A stretch of 14,046 nt of DNA from Promethearchaeota archaeon (lineage in GTDB: Archaea; Asgardarchaeota; Lokiarchaeia; Sigyniarchaeales; SOKP01). Positions within the stretch are counted from its first letter, which is position 1. Every line of letters starts with the position of its first letter. Shown here piece by piece: positions 2,329-12,929 of the stretch. A model generated the notes under the pieces. The model did no database searches, had not been told where the DNA came from, and saw only the letters and a program-made list of their open reading frames with translations. The stretch is from positions 1 through 14,046 of the forward strand of contig JBHLME010000117.1 of assembly GCA_048938445.1 (NCBI GenBank), in the 5' to 3' direction. Made by a program: the position numbers and the translations under genes.

Positions 2329-4137
2329 ATGTATTCAGAACTTTCGGATGACGACAAAAATATGTATTTAGATGTGTTAAGAGACGCACCCATCATGCCT
2401 TTTACCAATTTCGTAAGTCGAGGTGATATAAAAGATAAAGTCGATATTTCAAGACCTCGAAGCGTCATTGATAGAGAGGTTTACCGATTAGTAAAACAAA
2501 CTGCTCAAGATAAATCATCACGTTTAATTCCAATTCTGGGATCAGCAGGAACAGGTAAAACACACGCCTATCATTCTTTTAAGGACAAGGAAGAGGAGAA
2601 CAGGAAAAAACTTGAACAAACGGAGGAAATTGAAGTTGCTCAAATGGAACCCGTGAATTGGACTATAATTTATGTACCAAGCCCTCCTGCAAGTATTCGT
2701 GTTTTACTGCATGTATATACTTGTCTTATAGAAGATGTAGGTCCAGAAATCTTGGATAGAGTTTCATATAATCTCGTGGAAGAGTGGAAAGAAAAATTAG
2801 CAAAAAAGGGGATTTTTCAAAAGCCTAAAATTGAGGAAGTAATCCAAATAGGGATAAGAGAATTTCCTGGAGTATTTGCTGATTGTGTAAAAGCATTAGT
2901 TACCTTCCAAATGGATAAAAATAAAAAAGCTCTATCAGAACGATGGCTTTTGGGTGAAGATCTAGAGCCCGAAGAGTTAAGTGACCTGGGAATTAATTCG
3001 GTTATTGAAGAGGATGATATATGTCTTGCCATGATTAAAATCATTACAGAAAAGATAGATCGAGTTCTTATTTTCTATTTTGATGAGCTTGAATCTCCTT
3101 ATAGAATGCATGGTGAAATTGCTGAACGCAAATTTCTTGAAATATTAAAGCGGTTGTATAATGAAGTAAAAGGATTAGTCATTATTATTGCTGTATTAAA
3201 AGAAATTTGGCCGAGAATTTTAGAAATAGCTGATGATCCATTGAGGAGTAGGATGGAACCAGAGGAAGAATTAAAACCTTTTAGTCTAAATGATTTAAAA
3301 ATATTCTTTTCAAAATCAATGGAAGTCTTCTGGGATGATAACAATCTTAGCCCACCCCTCTATCCGCTATTCCCTTTAAATGAAAAATTAATTGAAATGA
3401 TCTATGAAAAAACTAAAGGAAATCAAAGAAATTCCATAAAACTCTGTAAAAGATTCATTGACATGATTGTAATGGAAGAGATGACTGTAGATGAATTATT
3501 GCAGGCAGGAGTAGAGATTATTGCCACAGCAAAACCACCAGTTGAAGCTGAAGAAGTTGTTGATTTCTCAAAACCAAGAGAAGTAACTAAAGCGACGATT
3601 GAAGATATTCTCAATCAAGAAGAATATGTCATTAATGTTAATCCTCAAAGTGTAGCAGGAGCAGCTTTAAAATGTATTATTAAGATTGGAGAAGATAAAG
3701 GAAAGAAATTCAAGCATGAAATGGAATATAAATTTAAAATTGGGAAGAAGAGCCAAACATTGGCTGCCTTGATTGAATATGATAAGAAGAGATGGGGTAT
3801 GGTCATACCTTCATGTAAAACATTTGATAGAAGTGCTGGAGTTGCCGGATACTATGCAGCTAAAAGATTAAAAGATGCCATGAATGAGAAAGCAATAGAT
3901 GAGGGAATTTTAATCGTGCCTGAAGGGAGCGGTGGAGCCAAATTTGAGTTGATTTTAAATGATAATCCAGAAATTCATAAAGTTGTATTAAACAATGAAA
4001 TGGGAGAAGATTTAATAGCAAATGCATTGAAATATCCTACAAAAGAAGGATGGGAAATTGCAAAGATTGTTTTTAAAGATATTGGTGATTATGTCCCACC
4101 AGTTGTAGAAGAAGATACAACTCAAAATGAAGATTAA
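2329..4137 (+). CDS. P-loop NTPase (AAA+-like) with an extra C-terminal alpha/beta domain
   Basis: 602 aa, GAGG upstream. Walker A is GSAGTGKT, Walker B is LIFYFDELE, the likely arginine finger is PLRSRM and a sensor-2-like motif is GNQR. Confidence 0.88.
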   Translation: MYSELSDDDKNMYLDVLRDAPIMPFTNFVSRGDIKDKVDISRPRSVIDREVYRLVKQTAQDKSSRLIPILGSAGTGKTHAYHSFKDKEEENRKKLEQTEEIEVAQMEPVNWTIIYVPSPPASIRVLLHVYTCLIEDVGPEILDRVSYNLVEEWKEKLAKKGIFQKPKIEEVIQIGIREFPGVFADCVKALVTFQMDKNKKALSERWLLGEDLEPEELSDLGINSVIEEDDICLAMIKIITEKIDRVLIFYFDELESPYRMHGEIAERKFLEILKRLYNEVKGLVIIIAVLKEIWPRILEIADDPLRSRMEPEEELKPFSLNDLKIFFSKSMEVFWDDNNLSPPLYPLFPLNEKLIEMIYEKTKGNQRNSIKLCKRFIDMIVMEEMTVDELLQAGVEIIATAKPPVEAEEVVDFSKPREVTKATIEDILNQEEYVINVNPQSVAGAALKCIIKIGEDKGKKFKHEMEYKFKIGKKSQTLAALIEYDKKRWGMVIPSCKTFDRSAGVAGYYAAKRLKDAMNEKAIDEGILIVPEGSGGAKFELILNDNPEIHKVVLNNEMGEDLIANALKYPTKEGWEIAKIVFKDIGDYVPPVVEEDTTQNED

Positions 4138-4166: not shown

Positions 4167-5096
4167 TTATATTTTAGAGCCCAGATTTTTCAAATTCTCA
4201 TTTAAATCATATAATTTAGTCGCAAGTTTATAAGCTTCTTTTGTGTCCTCCATTAATTCATTAAAAAGTTTCAACAAATTATCATCTTCAACAAGGTTAG
4301 AAATATAAGCAACTCGCTCAATTGCAGGTAAGACAACTTCATAAGATTTTTTCAATTGAGCAGATACTGTTAATTCTGTAAATGCCCTTTTTACTTCTTT
4401 CAAATATGCTTCACGTTCTTTGAGTAAATCTGGAAAAGTACCAACTTTTTCTCCTTTATTTTGCAGAAATGCCACGATTTCATCCTCTTGAATCAGCGCT
4501 GCCAGCTCTGCTGCTTTCTCAAAGCTCTTTTTAGCTTTCTTAAAATCATTTTCTCTAAAATATTTATCTGCAAGTTGTATTTCTTGGGCTAATTTTAAAG
4601 GGATTTTTTCACCTAATTCTATGAGCTCCCGTGCTTCTTTCAAGTTCCCATTGTCGAGCATTTTTTTTGTTTTTTCATTTATCGTCTCAATGATTAATTT
4701 TGGTTCCTTTAATTTTTCTAACAAGCTTAAAATGGAAGATAAATGATCCTTGAGTAAATTTGTCATGCTTCTTCTATTATCTGAGAAATTTTCAATGATT
4801 TTTTCCTCAGATTTCTCAAAAATGCTCTTTAACGAGATTAAATCTTCATTCTCTAGGAGGATAAATCCTAGATATAAATTATCTTTTCCTATTGATTTAG
4901 CATCGATTTTACTTGAATAATATCTAATATCATTCTTTTTTACTGTAGCATCTACTAATTCCTTTTCAACATGTTTTTCTATGAATTCTTTCAATATTTC
5001 TTGTGAAAGTTTTATATTAGATAAATAATACTCTGCGATAATATTTGGTCCAAAAGATTCGTCAATTTCATATAAAAAAATAGCATTAGGAGACAT
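4167..5096 (-). CDS. Hypothetical protein: N-terminal longin/uDENN-like domain plus a helical (TPR/coiled-coil-like) C-terminus
   Basis: 309 aa. The N-terminus AIFLYEIDESFGPNIIAEY resembles the 'hhhh.FD...GP.h' start of uDENN/longin domains. The C-terminal segment ADKYFRENDFKKAKKSFEKAAELA is TPR-like. Confidence 0.75.
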   Translation of the reverse strand: MSPNAIFLYEIDESFGPNIIAEYYLSNIKLSQEILKEFIEKHVEKELVDATVKKNDIRYYSSKIDAKSIGKDNLYLGFILLENEDLISLKSIFEKSEEKIIENFSDNRRSMTNLLKDHLSSILSLLEKLKEPKLIIETINEKTKKMLDNGNLKEARELIELGEKIPLKLAQEIQLADKYFRENDFKKAKKSFEKAAELAALIQEDEIVAFLQNKGEKVGTFPDLLKEREAYLKEVKRAFTELTVSAQLKKSYEVVLPAIERVAYISNLVEDDNLLKLFNELMEDTKEAYKLATKLYDLNENLKNLGSKI

Positions 5097-5254
5097 TATT
5101 TTTCTTACCGATTACTCTTCTTTTTAATAGATTAATATCTTATTAATAAGCACTCAATTTTAAATTTTTATTTTAAAATATCCTAATATAGCATTGAATT
5201 TAAAAAATAACTTAAACAATTATATAAACAAATTATCCAAGGAGGAATTCTATA

Positions 5255-6367
5255 TTAGGTTAAAAGTTCTACTAAAAATATAGGAAATTCTTTCTCTTCA
5301 TCCAATATCTCAAGACATTTAATATTCCACTCACCAAAAATCTGGTAATTTACAATTCCTAGTTTTTGTTTAATATCATCTTTATTAATTTTTTTTTTTT
5401 TCAAATAATATTCATGTATAATGAAATCATTATAACGTAAATATAATTGAACAAATCTAGAACCTTTATGGAATTTTATTACTATGTCTTTTAAGCTTTC
5501 AGTAAAAGAAGGAGTGAGCTCTTTTAATGGATTAAAAGTAATTTCATTAGTATTTTTAACTCCTTCAATTTCTCTCATTTTTATAAAGATTTTTTTTTTA
5601 AACTCAATATTTCCTATCAATTTTTGTTCGATATAACCATTAAAATGATGTTTTGATAAATGGATTGTTAAACCTGCAATTTCAGTGATAGTTACCAAAG
5701 TATATAGAAAAATTTGAAAAAATAAATAGTTAAGTAATGTAATTTTTTCTTTTTCTTTAGAATTTTTTTGATTCTCTTTAATTTTATTGTATAAAATCCT
5801 CAATTGCTTTATCCGTAAAAAAGGATCAATTTCAAGGAAGCAATTAGAAAATTTAGATGTTATCTCTTTAGAAAATGAATCTTGATTTTTGTATAAGTCT
5901 AAAATTATTTTATAAACATTTAAACTGAAGCTACCAAAATTATTTTGTTTTATTTTTTTTTGAAAAGATGAGCTTGCTTGTAATCGGATATCAAATTTAT
6001 CAGCAAATTGTTGTACTGTTTCTGATACACTTTCTCTTAAAATTAATAGATAATCAATTTTAAGGATAGTTGCTACTCCTTTCATTCTTAGTATTTGTGA
6101 GAAAATACTTTCTGATCTATGTTTGCAATCAATTAAAAAAGTCTTTTTCTCTAAAAATTTTCCAAAAATTATTCCATAACAATCTAAATCTGTTACTTCT
6201 AATTTATCTAAGCTCTCATATAATCTCTCTCCATTTTGGGAGATTTTATATCTAATCGCATAAAGTTTTAATCTAGGAAAAACTAAATATCCATGATCCC
6301 ATAAAAATTGATGTGCGTCTCTTTCTAATTTTAAACCTTTAATTTGATCATCAGTAAAAACACTCAT
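5255..6367 (-). CDS. PD-(D/E)xK restriction-endonuclease-like protein with a helical C-terminal domain
   Basis: 370 aa. Motif I helix is G..LE(15)...FL...GY.V, motif II is TD(60)LD(62) and motif III is LID(80)CK(82). The start overlaps the upstream stop by 4 bp (ATGA, 6364-6367). Confidence 0.82.
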   Translation of the reverse strand: MSVFTDDQIKGLKLERDAHQFLWDHGYLVFPRLKLYAIRYKISQNGERLYESLDKLEVTDLDCYGIIFGKFLEKKTFLIDCKHRSESIFSQILRMKGVATILKIDYLLILRESVSETVQQFADKFDIRLQASSSFQKKIKQNNFGSFSLNVYKIILDLYKNQDSFSKEITSKFSNCFLEIDPFLRIKQLRILYNKIKENQKNSKEKEKITLLNYLFFQIFLYTLVTITEIAGLTIHLSKHHFNGYIEQKLIGNIEFKKKIFIKMREIEGVKNTNEITFNPLKELTPSFTESLKDIVIKFHKGSRFVQLYLRYNDFIIHEYYLKKKKINKDDIKQKLGIVNYQIFGEWNIKCLEILDEEKEFPIFLVELLT

Positions 6368-7584
6368 CCATAATCCCTCAATAATTTTTTTAAATCAATA
6401 CAATGATTTTTAATATCTTCTGAGTTTGAAAAACGAGCTCTATAACCTGCAGCATCAGACAACCACGTCGGAGAATTTTTAACACTTCCAACACTATAAT
6501 CGAATGATTTATTTAGAATTTCATTTGATTCTTTTAATGTTTCTGATTTTAAACTAATCATACGTTTTCTATTAGATGTACTTCCTTCTACTATCTTAAT
6601 AACCCCTTTAACTTCAAGTGGGAAATAATTTAGACCAATATTAGTTGCATTTCCAGCGGTCCCATTATTTACCAATTTATTTAAAAATGCTGGTGGATTT
6701 TCCAATCTACCAAGATTTTTAACAGCATAGACTTCGTTAAATCGAAAATATGCAGCAGTTTCATAAGATAAATCACCATTTTCTAAATCTTTTGGATTGG
6801 TGAATAAAAAATATTTTGTAGTAGCATTAGGCAAAATGACAGGTACAGGTAATAAAACACCTTTAAAGGCACCTTCAATAATTGCATTCTGAATCCTACT
6901 ATCTATAGATTCTAATGGAAATGCGGGAGAAACATTAATTTTTTCAATTTCTTCAATTATTTTATTAGAAGCAATGTCAAATTCACTAAATAAATCTAAA
7001 GTGTCGGAACTAATATTTTTAAATAATGTTTGAGTATAATAATAACTTGATTTTTGAATTATTAATCCTAAATTTTTACAAATATCAAGAATTTTTTTCA
7101 AATTAATTTCATCTTTTACTTCTTTATTGAGAATTTCAAATTTTTTTGGGATTATTGCAGAAATTAAAACCTTGATAAAATTTTTTTGAGAATCATCTAA
7201 TAATCCTTTTTTATCATAATCTTTCCAGATTTTTTCACATAAATTAACTACTTCTTTATAGGATTTTAATTTAACTAAAAAAACACCTTCATTACTTAAT
7301 GATATTTTAGGATCTTCTCCATTTTCTTGATATCTCTCAATTAATCTATCAATCTGATAAATTCCATTCATTGCAGCTAATTTCCTAAAAATGTTTATGG
7401 GAATTTGTTCATACTTTTCATCTCTAACTAAGGCTTCTAAGAAAAATCCAATTTTACCAATATGAGTCAATTCATTATAGTTATATAATAAATCTTCTCT
7501 TTTTTTCTCCCAAATTGCAGATACTAGGTCCATACAGATTTCAAGAATGGTTCTAAAATCAGTATTTTCGATTAAATCTTCCAA
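6364..7584 (-). CDS. Hypothetical protein, coupled partner of the nuclease; possibly several winged-helix-like modules
   Basis: 406-aa ORF with a TTG start preceded by an SD-like GTGAT. Several helix-then-G-hh-strand segments (CKNLGLII, AFKGVLL, LEVKGVIKI) suggest wHTH wings. No catalytic motif recognised. Confidence 0.8.
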   Translation of the reverse strand: MEDLIENTDFRTILEICMDLVSAIWEKKREDLLYNYNELTHIGKIGFFLEALVRDEKYEQIPINIFRKLAAMNGIYQIDRLIERYQENGEDPKISLSNEGVFLVKLKSYKEVVNLCEKIWKDYDKKGLLDDSQKNFIKVLISAIIPKKFEILNKEVKDEINLKKILDICKNLGLIIQKSSYYYTQTLFKNISSDTLDLFSEFDIASNKIIEEIEKINVSPAFPLESIDSRIQNAIIEGAFKGVLLPVPVILPNATTKYFLFTNPKDLENGDLSYETAAYFRFNEVYAVKNLGRLENPPAFLNKLVNNGTAGNATNIGLNYFPLEVKGVIKIVEGSTSNRKRMISLKSETLKESNEILNKSFDYSVGSVKNSPTWLSDAAGYRARFSNSEDIKNHCIDLKKLLRDYG

Positions 7585-7864
7585 AAGATATCACTTTATT
7601 ATTATCTTTAAATTTTTGCCAGATTCGAAAATATAATAATTATCATTTAAAATTTATATGTTTTGAAAAAAACTACATAGGGACTTAATAAAATATTTTC
7701 TATTTAATTCATTTTTCAAAAAAAAAATTATGACTCCCTTAGGTTATAAATTTTAAAATCAATTAGCTATACTATGAAATCAAATATAAAAAAATTAAAC
7801 ATTTTTAAAAATCAAAAAATATAATCTTATGAATTATAAAAATAGATAAAAACAGAGTCTTATT

Positions 7865-9400
7865 ATGTCAAATAAAAAGAGTCAAGTATTAAGTTGTTCC
7901 GAGAATCCTTGTTTCACATATTCTAAAAATACTATTATATCCACTGATCATCATAAAAAACCGATATTTGATTCTTATACAGTTAAGAAGACAAAGTGGT
8001 CATTCATAGATTGGAATAATGAAGGAATCCCTAGGTTATATAATGAAGCAAAAAAAAATGTGAAACATTACTTAAAGAATGAAATTTTAAAAATTAATTT
8101 CCAGAAATTGTTTAAAAATGGTTTTGCTCCACCTTTAATAGAAATACGTAAGCTTAGATGGGATTTTTATATTGCGATTAAAAAAAGAAAGTTTTCTTAC
8201 AGTGAATTGATAGATAGTTTAGGATTAAAAATTTATAAGAAAGAATGGCATAATGCTAAATGGGTAAATTTTGATTGGAATATTTCTGGATTTCCTAGAA
8301 CGAGAGAAGATGCTTTAGAAAATATCAAATTTTTTTTTCAATCTAAGATATTTACAAGAGATTTTAAATTAAAGTTTAATTTATCTAATAATGATGCCCC
8401 TACAAGGAGTAAACTTGAGAAGGGAGGATATAAGAGTTTTCTAATTGCAATTTATAAAAAGGGATTTACTTATAATGAGATGATAGATAGTCTTGGACTT
8501 AAAATAAATAGGCATGTAAAAAAATATTCTAAATTTAATTGGAATAATTCAGGTTTTCCTCGATCATATAAAATGGCAGTTTCAAATGCAACCAAATATT
8601 TATTAAATGATATATTAACAAGTGAATTTAAAAAAAAATATAATCTTGGTGAATATGAAGCACCAACATCGAATTTTTTTGATAATAAAATTAATAGTTT
8701 TGCTCAAGCATTATGGAGAAGAAATATTAGTTATAATGATGTTTTAGAAGAGGGAGATCTTATTCCACATAATAAAAACATATATTCAATAGTAGGTACT
8801 GCATTTCATTGGATTGCTGAACTGATTTTCTTAAGAAATTCAGATTATCAAGGGTGCATTTCTTTTTATGAATCCTATCCAAGTCGATTAAATGAAACTT
8901 TTCAAGATTATCACTGTGATAATACAATTATAGTGGATGAAAACTTCAGGAATTTATCAAAGCATTCAAAAAATATCCCGAAAAATATAAAATTGGTTAA
9001 TATTGATTATTATCTAGGAACAACAGTAAAAAAGATTATAAATAAAAGTCAAAAAGGTTACCAAGACAAAAATAAAATGCTAATACTAGTTCCAATTAAT
9101 TCTAAAAAACCAATTTCTACCCCCTATTATGTTCCTTATAGAGAACACGTAAGAGTACTAGATCCAATAAGTTTTTCATTATTTTTTGGTTATAAAAATA
9201 ATATTAATAATTTATTTTTAAATTATGTCAATTTAGCAAAAAAAGCTACTTACAACTCTGATTGCAGATTAAAATTGGTAAAAATTGCTGAAGAATGCAA
9301 ATTTTTAATTAAGAAGAATTTCAATTTCAAACAAAAAGAATTAGAAGGATTTCTAGAGATGAATAGAGATATAGGGTTGTTAAATTATAATTTTGACTAA
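7865..9400 (+). CDS. Tandem-repeat protein with a C-terminal atypical PD-(D/E)xK-like nuclease domain (homing-endonuclease-like architecture)
   Basis: 511 aa. Three ~88-aa repeats are followed by GTAFHWIAE ... HCDNTI ... VNIDYY ... KSQKGYQ. Confidence 0.75.
   Translation: MSNKKSQVLSCSENPCFTYSKNTIISTDHHKKPIFDSYTVKKTKWSFIDWNNEGIPRLYNEAKKNVKHYLKNEILKINFQKLFKNGFAPPLIEIRKLRWDFYIAIKKRKFSYSELIDSLGLKIYKKEWHNAKWVNFDWNISGFPRTREDALENIKFFFQSKIFTRDFKLKFNLSNNDAPTRSKLEKGGYKSFLIAIYKKGFTYNEMIDSLGLKINRHVKKYSKFNWNNSGFPRSYKMAVSNATKYLLNDILTSEFKKKYNLGEYEAPTSNFFDNKINSFAQALWRRNISYNDVLEEGDLIPHNKNIYSIVGTAFHWIAELIFLRNSDYQGCISFYESYPSRLNETFQDYHCDNTIIVDENFRNLSKHSKNIPKNIKLVNIDYYLGTTVKKIINKSQKGYQDKNKMLILVPINSKKPISTPYYVPYREHVRVLDPISFSLFFGYKNNINNLFLNYVNLAKKATYNSDCRLKLVKIAEECKFLIKKNFNFKQKELEGFLEMNRDIGLLNYNFD
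7994..8776 (+). repeat. Three degenerate intragenic tandem repeats with a 264-bp (88-aa) period
   Basis: Units start at 7994 (KWSFIDWNNEGIPR), 8258 (KWVNFDWNISGFPR) and 8522 (KYSKFNWNNSGFPR). All share later motifs AP(P/T), F..A(I/L) and (S/T)Y.(E/D)....(G/D)L. Confidence 0.92.
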
Positions 9401-9499
9401 AAGATTTTATACTAAGTCAATATTAATTTCAAATATTAGCATATTATTAATAAGAATTAAATATCTATCTATTCATATCTTTTGATAATAATTCAAATT

Positions 9500-9506
9500 G
9501 GAGGGG
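9500..9506 (+). promoter_or_regulatory. Shine-Dalgarno site of ftr
   Basis: GGAGGGG lies 8 nt before ATG 9515. Confidence 0.7.
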
Positions 9507-9514
9507 AAATTAAT

Positions 9515-10444
9515 ATGGTTTCTATTATTGATGACACTTACTGTGAAGCATTTGAGGGATTAGTAGCTCAACTTCAAGTAACGGCTCAAGATATGGAATT
9601 TTTAAATAGAGCAATAAATTCATTTACAGCATTACCATCAACCGTATTTGGTGATGCTGAAGGTGGTATTGTAAAAATGTTATCCGAAAGTGAAACTATT
9701 GATGGAAGAATGGGGGCAATAGTTCAATTATGGGTTACGGGAACAGGAAAGAAATCGACAGCTAAATTTTATGAACAATTAGGAAGGAGAATGCGTCAAG
9801 GGATTCTTGTTGTTCCCACTACATCAGTTTTTGACCACTTTCCAAAAAAAACTGAAAAAAAATTTAACATGATGGATAACGTTGGTCATTGCGGAGATGG
9901 ATATGAGTGGATAGTAGAAAAACATAATCGGAAACTCATCAACGTTCCAATCATGATGGGATTTGATTTTCTAATAGAAGAAGAAATATCATATGATAAA
10001 GGAGTTATGGGAGGTAATCTGTGGCTTTTTTGCGATTCTGTTGGTTCTGGAATAAAGATCGGGAGAGAAGGCGTGAAAATTATTGCGGAAATGGATGATG
10101 TATGCACAACCTTTGATGTATGTTCCGCAGGCTCAAAACCAGTGCCTCCCGATGCGAAATATCCCGAAATTGGACCATCAACAAATCATCCTTTTTGTCC
10201 GACTTTAAAGGATAGATTATCATCAGGTGAATTTCAAGTTCCAGAAGGCGTGCAATCTATTCCAGAATTAGTTTTTAATGCCTTAGATGTCAATACAATT
10301 AAAAATACGATGAAAAATGTAATCGAAGGGATCATAAATATGAATGGGCTAATCAAGATTTCTGCGGGAAATTATGGTGGTAAATTAGGGAAGTTTAATA
10401 TTTATTTACGTGAATTGGGACTAAAAAATAATTTTTTTAATTAA
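9515..10444 (+). CDS. ftr: Formylmethanofuran--tetrahydromethanopterin N-formyltransferase
   Basis: Family motifs IDDTYCEAF, AEGGI, ET.DGR.G, PTTSVFD, GDGYE, VPIMMG.DF, GVMGGN, SAGSK, STNHPFCPTLK and ISAGNYGGKLG. The start is moved from TTG 9482 to ATG 9515 because of the SD and the family N-terminus. Confidence 0.95.
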   Translation: MVSIIDDTYCEAFEGLVAQLQVTAQDMEFLNRAINSFTALPSTVFGDAEGGIVKMLSESETIDGRMGAIVQLWVTGTGKKSTAKFYEQLGRRMRQGILVVPTTSVFDHFPKKTEKKFNMMDNVGHCGDGYEWIVEKHNRKLINVPIMMGFDFLIEEEISYDKGVMGGNLWLFCDSVGSGIKIGREGVKIIAEMDDVCTTFDVCSAGSKPVPPDAKYPEIGPSTNHPFCPTLKDRLSSGEFQVPEGVQSIPELVFNALDVNTIKNTMKNVIEGIINMNGLIKISAGNYGGKLGKFNIYLRELGLKNNFFN

Positions 10445-10507
10445 ACTTAATTTCACTTTTAAATTTTGATTTGAGATATCCGAATTGCTTAAAAAAGCGA
10501 ATTTTTT

Positions 10508-10530
10508 AAAGAAATAAAAAAAAGAAAAAA
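10508..10530 (-). terminator. Putative oligo-T terminator of the membrane-protein gene
   Basis: A-rich tract on + (T tract on -) about 12 nt after the stop at 10542. Confidence 0.4.
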
Positions 10531-10541
10531 TATTTTTTTAG

Positions 10542-11360
10542 TTATACTCCATTTTCAAGTCCGATAAAGAATCCAAATATGATAAAAATAGTTATCAAAA
10601 CTGGAATACTTAGAATGGTTGGCTTTAGGCTTGTGGGTCTGAATCCAATCATTATCATATACAATGAGAGCATCATTAGTAATCTTACGATAAAGAGATA
10701 ATTATAATGATCATGTATTAAAGACCCCAGTATAACAGTATCTGCTAAGATGCATAGTGCAAAGATTGGGGAAGAAATCATTAATACCGTGCTTCTAGCT
10801 TTTAATTCTCCTGCTGTCTTCTGCCTCATTTTACCAAATCCAATTAAAGTAAATGTTGACGTGATTGTGGTAAAAATCCATATTGAGAAATAAAATAACG
10901 TTCCTGGCGCAGCCCAATCATCCATTACTTCCCCATAAACATCATGAAATCTGACAAGTCCTTCTATAAAGTATAGTGAAAGGAAGAAAATGAGATAATA
11001 AGTAATACCGAGCAATATATATATAATTAATATGTTCTTTCTGGTTTTCGTTGATGCCACTAATTCCCAAACAATATAGACAATTGCAAAACAGCCAATC
11101 GGAAGTGTAGAGTAAGAAAAGAATGGAATTAGAAATTCAATCCAATTTGGGGTTGTACCAGTAAATTCAACCGCAAGAAATGAAAGTGTTATACCCAACC
11201 AGCCAACTCCAATTGAACCGAAAAGAAGGATCCCACCTAAATATGTTTTATTTTTTAGTTTTATATAGTAGTATGTACTATCTATTACTAAAAAAAATGC
11301 CACGCATATCAATAGAAGCGTGCTAATCCCATTCAACCATGATATTGAAAAGTTAGTCAT
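10542..11360 (-). CDS. Multi-pass (about 7-8 TM) membrane protein of unknown function
   Basis: The ORF track starts at GTG 11369; the in-frame ATG at 11360 is preferred. There are about eight hydrophobic segments. It is a paralog of the partial gene at 13821-14045. Confidence 0.85.
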   Translation of the reverse strand: MTNFSISWLNGISTLLLICVAFFLVIDSTYYYIKLKNKTYLGGILLFGSIGVGWLGITLSFLAVEFTGTTPNWIEFLIPFFSYSTLPIGCFAIVYIVWELVASTKTRKNILIIYILLGITYYLIFFLSLYFIEGLVRFHDVYGEVMDDWAAPGTLFYFSIWIFTTITSTFTLIGFGKMRQKTAGELKARSTVLMISSPIFALCILADTVILGSLIHDHYNYLFIVRLLMMLSLYMIMIGFRPTSLKPTILSIPVLITIFIIFGFFIGLENGV

Positions 11361-11513: not shown

Positions 11514-12263
11514 TTAAAATAGATGTTTTAACTTGTTAGTTCTATATTCTTCTCGCCTTTTAATAGCATACCTTCCCAACGTAGTATCAGGTAAAAAAAG
11601 GGAGGGCGCTTCTTTCTCCAATGCATTTAATAAGTTTAGGAGGTGTAATGAAGCTGAAGAATCACTCATATCTTTATGTGATAAAAGAAATGATACTGGT
11701 TCACGACATTCTTGACGAATATTTATTGCAAATGAATTTAAAGTTTCTAGTGATAGCTCTTTCCCTTGAATTTGTTCTAGACTGCTATTTGAAGCACCAC
11801 AAGGACTCTCTATTAGAAGTTTCGCTTCCTTAATAATTGCTTTTTCATTATTAGAAATTTTTATATTGATCTTATATACAGGCGAGCCGAATTTATTGAA
11901 ATATTCATCAATTTCCTTAATACCCGTGTCTGGGAGAGCATTACACATGCTAATTGGCATTATTATTTGTGGATTCATATCTTTTACTTGTCTTAAAAAA
12001 CCCTCTCCAAAGTCAATGGGTAATATTGTAGGTTTTTGTCGAGAACATATTTCTGCTACGACATCAGCATGTCTTACATATACAATTAATAAATCTGATT
12101 CTTTAATAGCACTCTCAACATTATCTTCGAGTTTCACGTCATCAATTATTTCTGAAGCATTTCTTTCTTCCATTATGATAAATCGTGTTTCGGGAAATTT
12201 ATTTTTTACAACTTGGGCAGCTCTATCACCATATTTCCCATCACTTAATATAGCGATATTAAT
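11514..12263 (-). CDS. DUF166-family-like protein, probably initiated at a non-canonical ATT
   Basis: The ORF track starts at ATG 12173, but the frame extends 30 codons upstream as INIAILSDGKYGDRAAQVV, matching the archaeal DUF166 N-terminus (..I.I..DG.YG.RA). Other motifs are SMCNAL, F...FG.P, SPCGAS and CRE. Confidence 0.75.
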   Translation of the reverse strand: MNIAILSDGKYGDRAAQVVKNKFPETRFIIMEERNASEIIDDVKLEDNVESAIKESDLLIVYVRHADVVAEICSRQKPTILPIDFGEGFLRQVKDMNPQIIMPISMCNALPDTGIKEIDEYFNKFGSPVYKINIKISNNEKAIIKEAKLLIESPCGASNSSLEQIQGKELSLETLNSFAINIRQECREPVSFLLSHKDMSDSSASLHLLNLLNALEKEAPSLFLPDTTLGRYAIKRREEYRTNKLKHLF

Positions 12264-12278
12264 GAAAATCCCTCAATT

Positions 12279-12929
12279 TTATTTTTTCTCTGGAAGTTTG
12301 AATTGGAATTCTGTATAATACTTTCCATATTTTTCAGTAAATATTTTATCTATCTTTTTAATAGGTAAATCATCATAAAGACCCCAATCTTTCACATATT
12401 CTACGAATTTATTCCCTTCATTATCCAAGGGAGCGAGTAATGCGTTATTATCTCCATTAAACTCGACCATTGGAAGATAACCTGCTTTAAAAGCAGTGTC
12501 TTTATCAAAAACAGGAGTGAGTTTTATCCATTTTCCATCTAAATTCAATTCACTATAGCCATGACAGTGAAATATTTTTGTTCCCATAAATTCCTCAATC
12601 CAATCAGGAACTTTATGATTTATTATATCAACCATGTGAATTCGAGCAGGAATTCCTACTGCTCGAGCAAAAGTGGATAATAAAACGGCTTTAGACATGC
12701 AAAATCCATTTTTACGTCTTAATGTAGTTGATGCTTTAAGATTCGTCTGAAATTTTGGTAGATAAGTGTACATGTTATATTTTATTTCATCTCTCACCCA
12801 ATAAAATAATGCTATCGCTTTTTCCTTATCCGTTTTAAGACCATTAATTATATTGAAAGCCGTCTTTTTAACACGTTTATTATCAAAATCAAGAAATTTT
12901 GTGGACTGAAGAGTATTTACATTAGACAT
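12279..12929 (-). CDS. Transglutaminase-like superfamily protein
   Basis: 216 aa. Motifs are A.ALFYWVRDEIKY, AS.TL....GFC.SKA.L...ARA.GIPAR (catalytic Cys), HGYSE..L.GKW (His) and TP.FD (Asp region). Confidence 0.92.
   Translation of the reverse strand: MSNVNTLQSTKFLDFDNKRVKKTAFNIINGLKTDKEKAIALFYWVRDEIKYNMYTYLPKFQTNLKASTTLRRKNGFCMSKAVLLSTFARAVGIPARIHMVDIINHKVPDWIEEFMGTKIFHCHGYSELNLDGKWIKLTPVFDKDTAFKAGYLPMVEFNGDNNALLAPLDNEGNKFVEYVKDWGLYDDLPIKKIDKIFTEKYGKYYTEFQFKLPEKK

Follow-up and report, generated by a model that had tools for sequence, protein, structure and literature searches.

What kind of system is formed by two overlapping genes that sit in an AT-rich island between core genes of an Asgard archaeon and that find no counterpart among named protein families? 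We approached this question for a sequence of 14,046 nt (the window), corresponding to positions 1-14,046 of contig JBHLME010000117.1 from the Promethearchaeota archaeon assembly GCA_048938445.1. The two genes, here called A and B, are predicted to encode a protein with several winged-helix-like modules and a nuclease of the PD-(D/E)xK superfamily, respectively (table 1). Judged from sequences, structural models and the setting of their relatives, they probably constitute a self-contained, mobile, methyltransferase-less two-gene module that protects its host or plasmid against invading DNA. A preliminary description of the locus, made from the sequence letters, had proposed a candidate archaeal antiviral defence system; the defence part of this proposal is supported by genomic context, whereas its archaeal part does not stand, as most relatives of the pair are bacterial and plasmid-borne and the pair is thus not specifically archaeal.

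The features read directly from the sequence in the preliminary description proved accurate. The two co-oriented genes do overlap by ATGA, and the TTG start of A is supported by the alignment of the N-termini of its homologues (MED, MDD or MEE), which line up with it at alignment column 1. Both genes are very AT-rich, with a guanine plus cytosine (GC) content of 0.234 in B and 0.263 in A compared with 0.297 for the window outside the island, and with GC at third codon positions of 0.14-0.15 versus 0.20-0.24 in the flanking genes. The reported lack of a methyltransferase is borne out by Pfam searches with 12 of the 13 open reading frames (ORFs) of at least 100 amino acids (aa) in the window, the omitted one (11866-12318) lying antisense inside a DUF166 gene. 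Likewise, no named system could be assigned: neither protein has a Pfam match at E ≤ 0.01, a PADLOC match at E ≤ 0.1 or a meaningful NCBIfam match. Five window proteins and 39 diverse family members gave no match to PADLOC-DB v2.0.0 at E ≤ 0.01, and nine further proteins of the pair yielded solely a sub-threshold match to PDC-S35 (E = 0.0099, 0 stretches). Profiles of both families searched against all PDB chains returned chance-level matches (E = 0.26-1.9), and no description of the pair was found in the full-text literature, supplementary tables being outside the search, which included six RefSeq accessions of family members.

The most specific functional prediction can be made for B, which on the strength of its sequence and model carries an intact, strongly conserved Mrr-like PD-(D/E)xK active site and is predicted to be a nuclease. 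The AlphaFold2 model built with 17 homologues (predicted local distance difference test score, pLDDT, 87.2; predicted template modelling score 0.88) has the alpha-beta-beta-beta-alpha-beta core of the superfamily, formed by helices 6-24 and 88-101 and strands 28-45, 48-68, 74-81 and 106-111. The signature E15...D62...D80-C-K82 noticed in the preliminary description falls on the canonical places, with E15 on the first helix, D60 and D62 on the second strand and D80 to K82 on the third. Among the 17 close homologues E15, D62, C81 and K82 are invariant and D80 nearly so, and in all 12 sequences compared across phyla (from Asgard archaea, Bacillota, Actinomycetota and Vibrio of the Proteobacteria) E15, T59, D60, D62 and K82 never vary and position 80 is occupied by D or E. 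The catalytic residues being kept across phyla, the active site of B is evidently under selection.

The nuclease fold is recovered by structural comparison with two programs. VIA-align places AF1548 (PDB 1y88) first with Z = 9.8, followed by VC1899 (9.5), two Can2 enzymes (9.3) and AspBHI (8.2), with 100-123 residues aligned; more than 15 restriction-type nucleases reach Z = 9.8-7.0 among the matches listed, and many Type II, IIS and IV enzymes have Z = 6-8 (MspJI 6.6). Foldseek results are weaker and concordant, with probabilities of 0.98-1.00 for 1y88 and 1xmx. The likeness to Mrr is structural only, B having no match to Pfam Mrr_cat (PF04471) at E ≤ 0.1. In the ESM Atlas, full-length look-alikes of B (template modelling scores 0.77-0.79) belong to bacterial clusters of hypothetical proteins, in one of which 26% of the members bear Mrr_cat. 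The helical extension postulated earlier is equally apparent in the model, where B is all-helical from about residue 140 or 150 to 370; the length of this domain is conserved across phyla and its sequence partly so, and VIA-align finds for it generic helical bundles only (Z = 6-7). The idea that it represents an inactive endonuclease III (EndoIII), as in END nucleases, was rejected, since hhalign of whole B and of its C-terminal domain alone against nine HhH-GPD/EndoIII proteins gave probabilities of 0.1-0.4%. The 50 VIA-align matches listed for B include no EndoIII, which taken alone decides nothing.

Protein A, modelled with AlphaFold2 and 21 homologues at a pLDDT of 77.4, fits the earlier impression of segments resembling winged helix-turn-helix domains. 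Residues 130-187 follow the winged-helix order helix-strand-helix-helix-strand-strand, and their best VIA-align match has Z = 9.5 at a root mean square deviation (rmsd) of 1.4 Å over 56 aligned of 64 residues. Many winged-helix domains match with Z = 9.5-8.0 (rmsd 1.1-2.0 Å, 53-58 residues), the top ones (ZBP1 Z-alpha, NolR, Rpa2, Sso10a and ArsR/MarR-type regulators) being tied within about 1.5 Z units. Of all modules of A this one is modelled best, and it most resembles Z-alpha and other small winged helices that read DNA. Three further modules of the same type are suggested by the secondary structure and by Foldseek matches of whole A, the best of which are weak and point to the multi-winged-helix proteins RPC62, UFL1, IclR and Nse1/3; against viral structures, Foldseek of the A model gave nothing at E ≤ 0.001. 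The motif GTAGNATNIGLNYFPLEVKGVI, correctly singled out as conserved-looking in the preliminary description, is the best conserved stretch of the family: G308, A310, G311, I316, G317, Y320, P322, K326, G327 and V328 do not vary among 21 close homologues, and among 20 sequences from across phyla G311 and Y320 remain invariant and G308 nearly so. P146, L304, K346 and, in the tail, R382 are also kept across phyla, and many distant matches align at profile positions of about 276-365 only. DpdG was considered as a relative of A and set aside, its ESM Atlas lead standing at 0.76 only with no Pfam match. A Pfam search for a CARF/SAVED cyclic-nucleotide sensor domain was negative for both A and B.

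The two genes are strictly paired: at every locus that could be evaluated they lie side by side with A first, and their codons usually overlap or abut. B directly follows A in ten of 11 metagenome loci (the contig of the 11th ends inside A), in all nine plasmid loci examined, in a phage-like contig (L015) and in one further GTDB genome found by a pattern search. Among the seven Asgard genomes with a match to A, the genes are adjacent in five, the locus is cut by a contig end in one, and one has a partial match of 252 aa without B, so that adjacency amounts to five of five evaluable genomes. Overlaps of four bases occur in L006, L008, L016, L038, L039 and L041 and of one base in L010, L012 and L019, while gaps of 3 to 20 bases separate the genes in L002, L015 and L017. 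An all-against-all comparison of ORFs from 18 loci identified as common genes only A (18/18) and B (17/18, the 18th running off the contig end), besides a serine recombinase common to five loci; no third gene or methyltransferase recurs with the pair in this comparison. A fourth shared ORF cluster, from three actinobacterial loci, was dismissed as an artefact of antisense ORFs inside B. A prediction of the A and B complex with family alignments as input scored 0.01, a value that speaks neither for nor against an interaction. The proposal that A senses or controls B, already made in the preliminary description, is something that we infer from sequences and models.

The distribution of the pair departs from that of a vertically inherited gene set. 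B was found in one of 41 related genomes, namely the window's own, while five genomes of the same genus (68-94% complete) and 17 high-quality genomes gave no match; A has matches in seven of 400 genomes of the phylum. The window genome has received the cassette as an insertion. In four relatives (G005, G015, G003 and G017) the genes run in the order Hsp20, ATPase, 309-aa gene and Ftr, and 131-277 bp separate the last two, the orthologues of the genes that flank the island; the island itself has a GC content of 0.242, lower than the 0.297 of the remaining window. Relatives of B occur on 16 plasmid records, 12 of them typed as mobilizable and one as conjugative, from Bacillus, Clostridium, Rhodococcus, Mycolicibacterium, Pseudarthrobacter, Streptomyces, Rubrobacter, Mesorhizobium and Vibrio. 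Given the presence of B in a single relative out of 41, the empty site, the deviant composition and the plasmid records, the pair is horizontally mobile, and in Asgard archaea it occurs rarely and in a patchy manner.

Close homologues number only 16-17 for B and 20-21 for A, none of them named; one comes from a Heimdallarchaeaceae metagenome-assembled genome (MAG). A profile of A searched against 1.84 billion representatives nevertheless retrieved 193 clusters (50% identity) at E ≤ 1e-3 and 46 at E ≤ 1e-10, with members mostly of 405-440 aa and with the named matches (e.g. from Granulicella and a Planctomycetota MAG) annotated as 'hypothetical protein'; 35 diverse members have no PADLOC match and, as the sole Pfam match, a sub-threshold one to Rrf2 (E = 0.0072). 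The ESM Atlas puts A beside bacterial clusters of 52-227 members. The IMG/VR contig L015, from a Firmicutes-type phage or prophage, carries at 8568-10996 a distant copy of the pair (423 and 380 aa), recognised by hhalign with probabilities of 97-98% (E = 4e-11 and 2e-13) and situated between DnaB_2, N6_N4 methylase and RecU genes and a sigma-70-like gene and terminase; no relative of this B copy was found among INPHARED phage genomes.

Several observations on individual loci may be added. Homologous serine recombinases lie within about 6 kb of the pair in the plasmid loci L016, L017, L019, L038 and L040, and in L016 the recombinase is followed by a Tn3-family transposase; such contexts suggest that the pair often rides as transposon cargo. 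In L057 (G311:C17, positions 1468-2223) the 252-aa Asgard protein mentioned above matches only the N-terminal winged-helix part of A (E = 9e-13) with no adjoining B, and it may be a stand-alone relative of these modules. In L004 (4315-5541) A is split into ORFs 4315-4887 and 5200-5541, yet the tblastn alignment runs end to end; the split may reflect a frameshift, an internal stop or an assembly error.

The neighbourhoods of the pair bear on its function. Searching ORFs within about 10 kb of it with PADLOC at E ≤ 1e-5, we obtained matches for 29 of 88 neighbouring ORFs, distributed over 13 of 17 loci, in comparison with 0 of 54 ORFs in unbiased controls taken from syntenic regions of relatives, from around homologues of the 511-aa gene in the island and from the window flanks. 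The matches to Lamassu, Thoeris, PARIS, RosmerTA, PD-T4-6 and Type IIG components are strong (E = 1e-27 to 1e-267). On a Bacillus mycoides plasmid the pair adjoins a Tn3-family transposon and is preceded directly by Lamassu LmuABC (E = 1e-45 to 1e-114) and followed directly by Thoeris ThsA plus two ThsB genes (E = 1e-61 to 1e-205). PARIS AriA/AriB, a PDC-S68 helicase, an HsdR fragment and an IS240 transposase accompany the pair in L008; an AriAB/OLD-like ATPase, a Schlafen/AlbA_2 protein and an HNH protein in L012; a TIR effector (PADLOC) and a Type ISP enzyme (Pfam) in L010; and an MvaI/BcnI nuclease with two methyltransferases, PDC-S18 and PDC-S11 in L002. RosmerTA is directly upstream in Pseudarthrobacter, Type IIG restriction–modification genes are found near the pair in Mesorhizobium and L013, a PD-T4-6 kinase in Rubrobacter, an E1-E2 protein and CapP in Mycolicibacterium, and a NucC-like PD-DExK protein in Vibrio; L007 has an Mrr_cat protein nearby, by Pfam only. 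The checks outlined in the preliminary description, concerning constant pairing, vertical conservation, proximity to defence genes and the nuclease fold, all came out in favour of a mobile defence pair.

A number of points weigh against this interpretation. Four of the 17 loci (the window, L004, L007 and L018) have no PADLOC neighbour, and the window's own island contains no defence gene recognised by Pfam or PADLOC. Some plasmid contexts are conjugation or replication regions and not defence islands, and two of the loci with matches, L020 (methyltransferase fragments only) and L017 (an ABC ATPase only), count little. Certain loci are closely related among themselves (L008/L009, L005/L006 and L010/L012), and the figure of 13 of 17 comes with controls that are not plasmid-matched and with no genome-wide score behind it. 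A second control, set around housekeeping EndoIII genes, gave matches to 'REase_II', 'mad2' or 'MTase_II' for 12 of its 25 ORFs, which makes bare 'MTase_II' and 'REase_II' matches weak evidence. The PADLOC model PDLC03398 ('Type II nicking endonuclease') matches ordinary HhH-GPD/EndoIII genes at E = 1e-17 to 1e-22 (L042-L051), and at four of eight EndoIII loci a neighbouring gene of 411-426 aa matches 'mad2' or 'MTase_II'; PADLOC matches of this sort lead to spurious defence calls in archaeal genomes.

If the pair serves defence, A would bind nucleic acid through its winged helices and would either direct B or hold it in check. B might then cut DNA once A recognises a foreign feature, for instance modified or unusual DNA, which would amount to a split Type IV, Mrr-like logic; alternatively, an infection cue might release B, in keeping with an abortive, toxin–antitoxin-like logic. 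Supposing a role in defence, we would assign roughly half of the probability to direct restriction of the invader's DNA and roughly a third to triggered self-damage. A more far-reaching version, which we put forward tentatively and at somewhat less than even chances, is that A and B represent an undescribed immune system of Asgard archaea and at least five bacterial phyla, in which a four-winged-helix A reads invader nucleic acid and licenses a dedicated Mrr-like B, the Asgard copies having been acquired horizontally as a small AT-rich island.

The alternative that fares best, while still unlikely in our estimate, is an addiction or competition module of the toxin–antitoxin type, with B as a DNase toxin and A, encoded upstream, as a DNA-binding antitoxin and autorepressor, serving plasmid stabilisation or the exclusion of rivals and not antiviral defence. 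The order of regulator and nuclease with overlapping codons is the layout of type II toxin–antitoxin operons, and the plasmid records, mostly mobilizable, the serine recombinase in five of nine plasmid loci, the Tn3 transposase of L016 and the location of the Rhodococcus and Vibrio copies among transfer genes would all suit such a module. In a comparison with type II systems, gene order and overlap are what fits. On the other side, A, with about 400-440 aa and four domains, is far larger than typical antitoxins, its best conserved stretch bears no evident likeness to a repressor fold, the pair is also chromosomal (including the window copy between core genes), and dedicated anti-phage systems usually surround it. 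This alternative overlaps with abortive-infection defence, from which it is not cleanly separable by sequence alone.

We consider it quite improbable that the pair is DNA repair, recombination or element-processing cargo, i.e. a structure-specific nuclease with a DNA-binding partner devoid of any immune role. Such a role would be in line with the repair enzyme NucS (PDB 2vld, Z = 7.8) being among the close folds, with the frequent function of multi-winged-helix proteins as scaffolds on DNA and with the position of the L015 pair right behind DnaB_2 and RecU, which serve replication and recombination. It sits badly with the extremely patchy spread (B in 1/41 and A in 7/400 genomes) and with an insertion of deviant composition, and it does not predict the defence-gene neighbourhoods; no repair genes recur with the pair. 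That B is the nuclease of a classical restriction–modification system whose methyltransferase is encoded elsewhere has a very slight chance: two N6/N4 methyltransferases lie directly downstream of the pair in L002 and a methylase pair 1 kb away in Mesorhizobium (L038), but these belong to complete neighbouring systems, with the MvaI/BcnI nuclease and a Type IIG enzyme, respectively, and the lack of any methyltransferase recurring across the 18 loci, as well as of one in the window, speaks against it. Finally, lineage-specific housekeeping genes of this Asgard group, a notion that draws on both flanking genes being core, can be given next to no credence, as B was not found in the five same-genus genomes or 35 further relatives, the flanking genes are adjacent in relatives, and the closest relatives of the pair are scattered across families and in bacteria.

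The window's own flank includes a 602-aa P-loop ATPase, which is found in 39 of the 41 relatives with 47-93% identity and always beside the 309-aa, TPR-like gene; this ATPase gene counts as core in Asgard archaea, without an assigned function, and not as a defence gene, in agreement with the earlier statement that the pair is placed between core-like genes. Contamination of the assembly by a foreign contig during binning was rejected, because the same ATPase is 83-93% identical in genomes of the same genus, so the contig belongs to the lineage.

Table 1. Features of the A/B pair, the island carrying it and the flanking genes, in window coordinates.
Feature	Position	Strand	Remarks
Gene A	6364-7584	minus	406 aa, TTG start; about four winged-helix-like modules and disordered C-terminal tail; proposed DNA-binding sensor/regulator
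Clearest winged-helix domain	7024-7197	minus	A residues 130-187; VIA-align
Motif GTAGNATNIGLNYFPLEVKGVI	6598-6663	minus	A residues 308-329; best conserved stretch of family A
ATGA overlap	6364-6367	minus	stop TGA of A overlaps start ATG of B; read in sequence
Gene B	5255-6367	minus	370 aa, ATG start; N-terminal PD-(D/E)xK nuclease (predicted), helical C-terminal part
PD-(D/E)xK (Mrr-like) nuclease domain	5918-6367	minus	B residues 1 to ~150; AlphaFold2, VIA-align, Foldseek
E15 codon	6323-6325	minus	GAA; acidic residue on helix 1
D60-L61-D62 codons	6182-6190	minus	D60 and D62 invariant across phyla; codons read in sequence
D80-C81-K82 codons, (D/E)xK motif	6122-6130	minus	GAT TGC AAA
All-helical C-terminal domain	5255-5917	minus	B residues 151-370 and stop codon; AlphaFold2 helices 149-369; fold family unassigned
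511-aa gene	7865-9400	plus	co-inserted, divergent from A; outside conserved pair
Inserted island (B, A, 511-aa gene)	~5200-9420		~4.2 kb; bounds approximate, from alignment to relatives' intergenic DNA
Core genes flanking island	4167-5096 and 9482-10444		309-aa gene and Ftr
602-aa P-loop ATPase	2329-4137	plus	weak Pfam matches: BrxC_BrxD (E 0.003), AAA_22, TniB

The 511-aa gene, inserted together with the pair, has no Pfam or PADLOC match. In its product three 88-aa repeats stand in tandem ahead of a C-terminal domain (the copies begin at 8009, 8273 and 8537, at a spacing of 264 nt). Homologues have a patchy distribution, occurring in 11 of 41 relatives with the window's own genome counted in; they are often multi-copy and in some cases belong to ORFs of 900-1100 aa. 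We discarded this gene as a third component of the system: it does not recur with the pair and is unrelated to the 509-aa gene occupying the same position in L002, and a conserved synteny of the window with L002 was likewise rejected, the pair alone matching. A 36-nt direct repeat, at 5123-5158 and 9427-9462, brackets the island, its copies being 75% identical and 4304 nt apart. It contains TTATTAATAAG, also present in the undisrupted intergenic region of relatives, and it could be a duplicated target, a promoter element or a chance occurrence in AT-rich DNA.

Should the defence function be validated, a compact two-gene system and two unannotated families would be added to prokaryotic immune mechanisms; no Pfam, NCBIfam or PADLOC model covers either of them, and family A alone comprises 193 clusters at 50% identity. 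To our knowledge, defence beyond clustered regularly interspaced short palindromic repeats (CRISPR) and restriction–modification is poorly charted in Asgard archaea, and the pair is among the few candidates seen both in this group and on plasmids of soil, marine and animal-associated bacteria. Because of the latter occurrence it is testable in ordinary laboratory hosts, and with the Bacillus plasmid, where it stands between Lamassu and Thoeris, a direct experiment would cost little. A new mode of foreign-DNA recognition might come to light through the multi-winged-helix partner.

How does the pair relate to systems already described? Compact two-gene operons of a sensor or regulator and an effector are represented in the same islands by PARIS (AriA/AriB) and RosmerTA, but their domains are unrelated to those of the pair, A and B being without an ATPase, Toprim or metallopeptidase domain. 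The archaeal protein AF1548, the best structural match to the nuclease domain of B (rmsd 3.6 Å over 111 residues, 13% identity), has only 184 aa, lacks the helical C-terminal domain and has no known partner or function. Next to it, the nearest solved nuclease folds (Z = 9.5-9.3, about 110 residues) are those of effectors linked to CARF or SAVED domains (Can2, Card1, VC1899 and Cap4), which are non-specific DNases kept inactive until a signal arrives. The match to Can2 and Card1 is, however, restricted to the nuclease domain, which in B is N-terminal, A and B are without CARF or SAVED, and no cyclase or CRISPR genes recur near the pair in the 18 loci.

END nucleases, in which, according to PMC12191111, a nuclease is fused to an inactive EndoIII sensor (END-Mag being a PD-DExK variant), share with B the absence of a methyltransferase, an all-helical second domain and residence in defence islands. 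They are described there as single genes with no co-associated partner, leaving A without a counterpart there, and B does not resemble their HhH-GPD sensor (hhalign ≤ 0.4%). Closest in architecture are perhaps the Mrr-type and other Type IV enzymes (Mrr, MspJI/AspBHI and winged-helix-fusion endonucleases), which like the pair combine a PD-(D/E)xK domain of the Mrr/AF1548 kind with winged-helix readers, lack a methyltransferase and occur in defence islands; winged-helix domains are treated as modification sensors in PMC11037411. In the pair, by contrast, reader and nuclease are encoded as two proteins, A contains some four winged-helix modules plus a conserved core of its own, B has a 220-aa helical domain and no match to Pfam Mrr_cat, and dependence on DNA modification is a candidate property only. 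Classical Types I-III differ in having a cognate methyltransferase with the nuclease. The pair thus conforms to the definitions of the PD-(D/E)xK superfamily and the winged-helix fold only and falls outside those of Mrr_cat, PADLOC systems, END, CARF/SAVED and classical restriction–modification; it matches no named system in PADLOC-DB v2.0.0 or Pfam, while its general kind, a sensor coupled with a PD-(D/E)xK effector, is already known.

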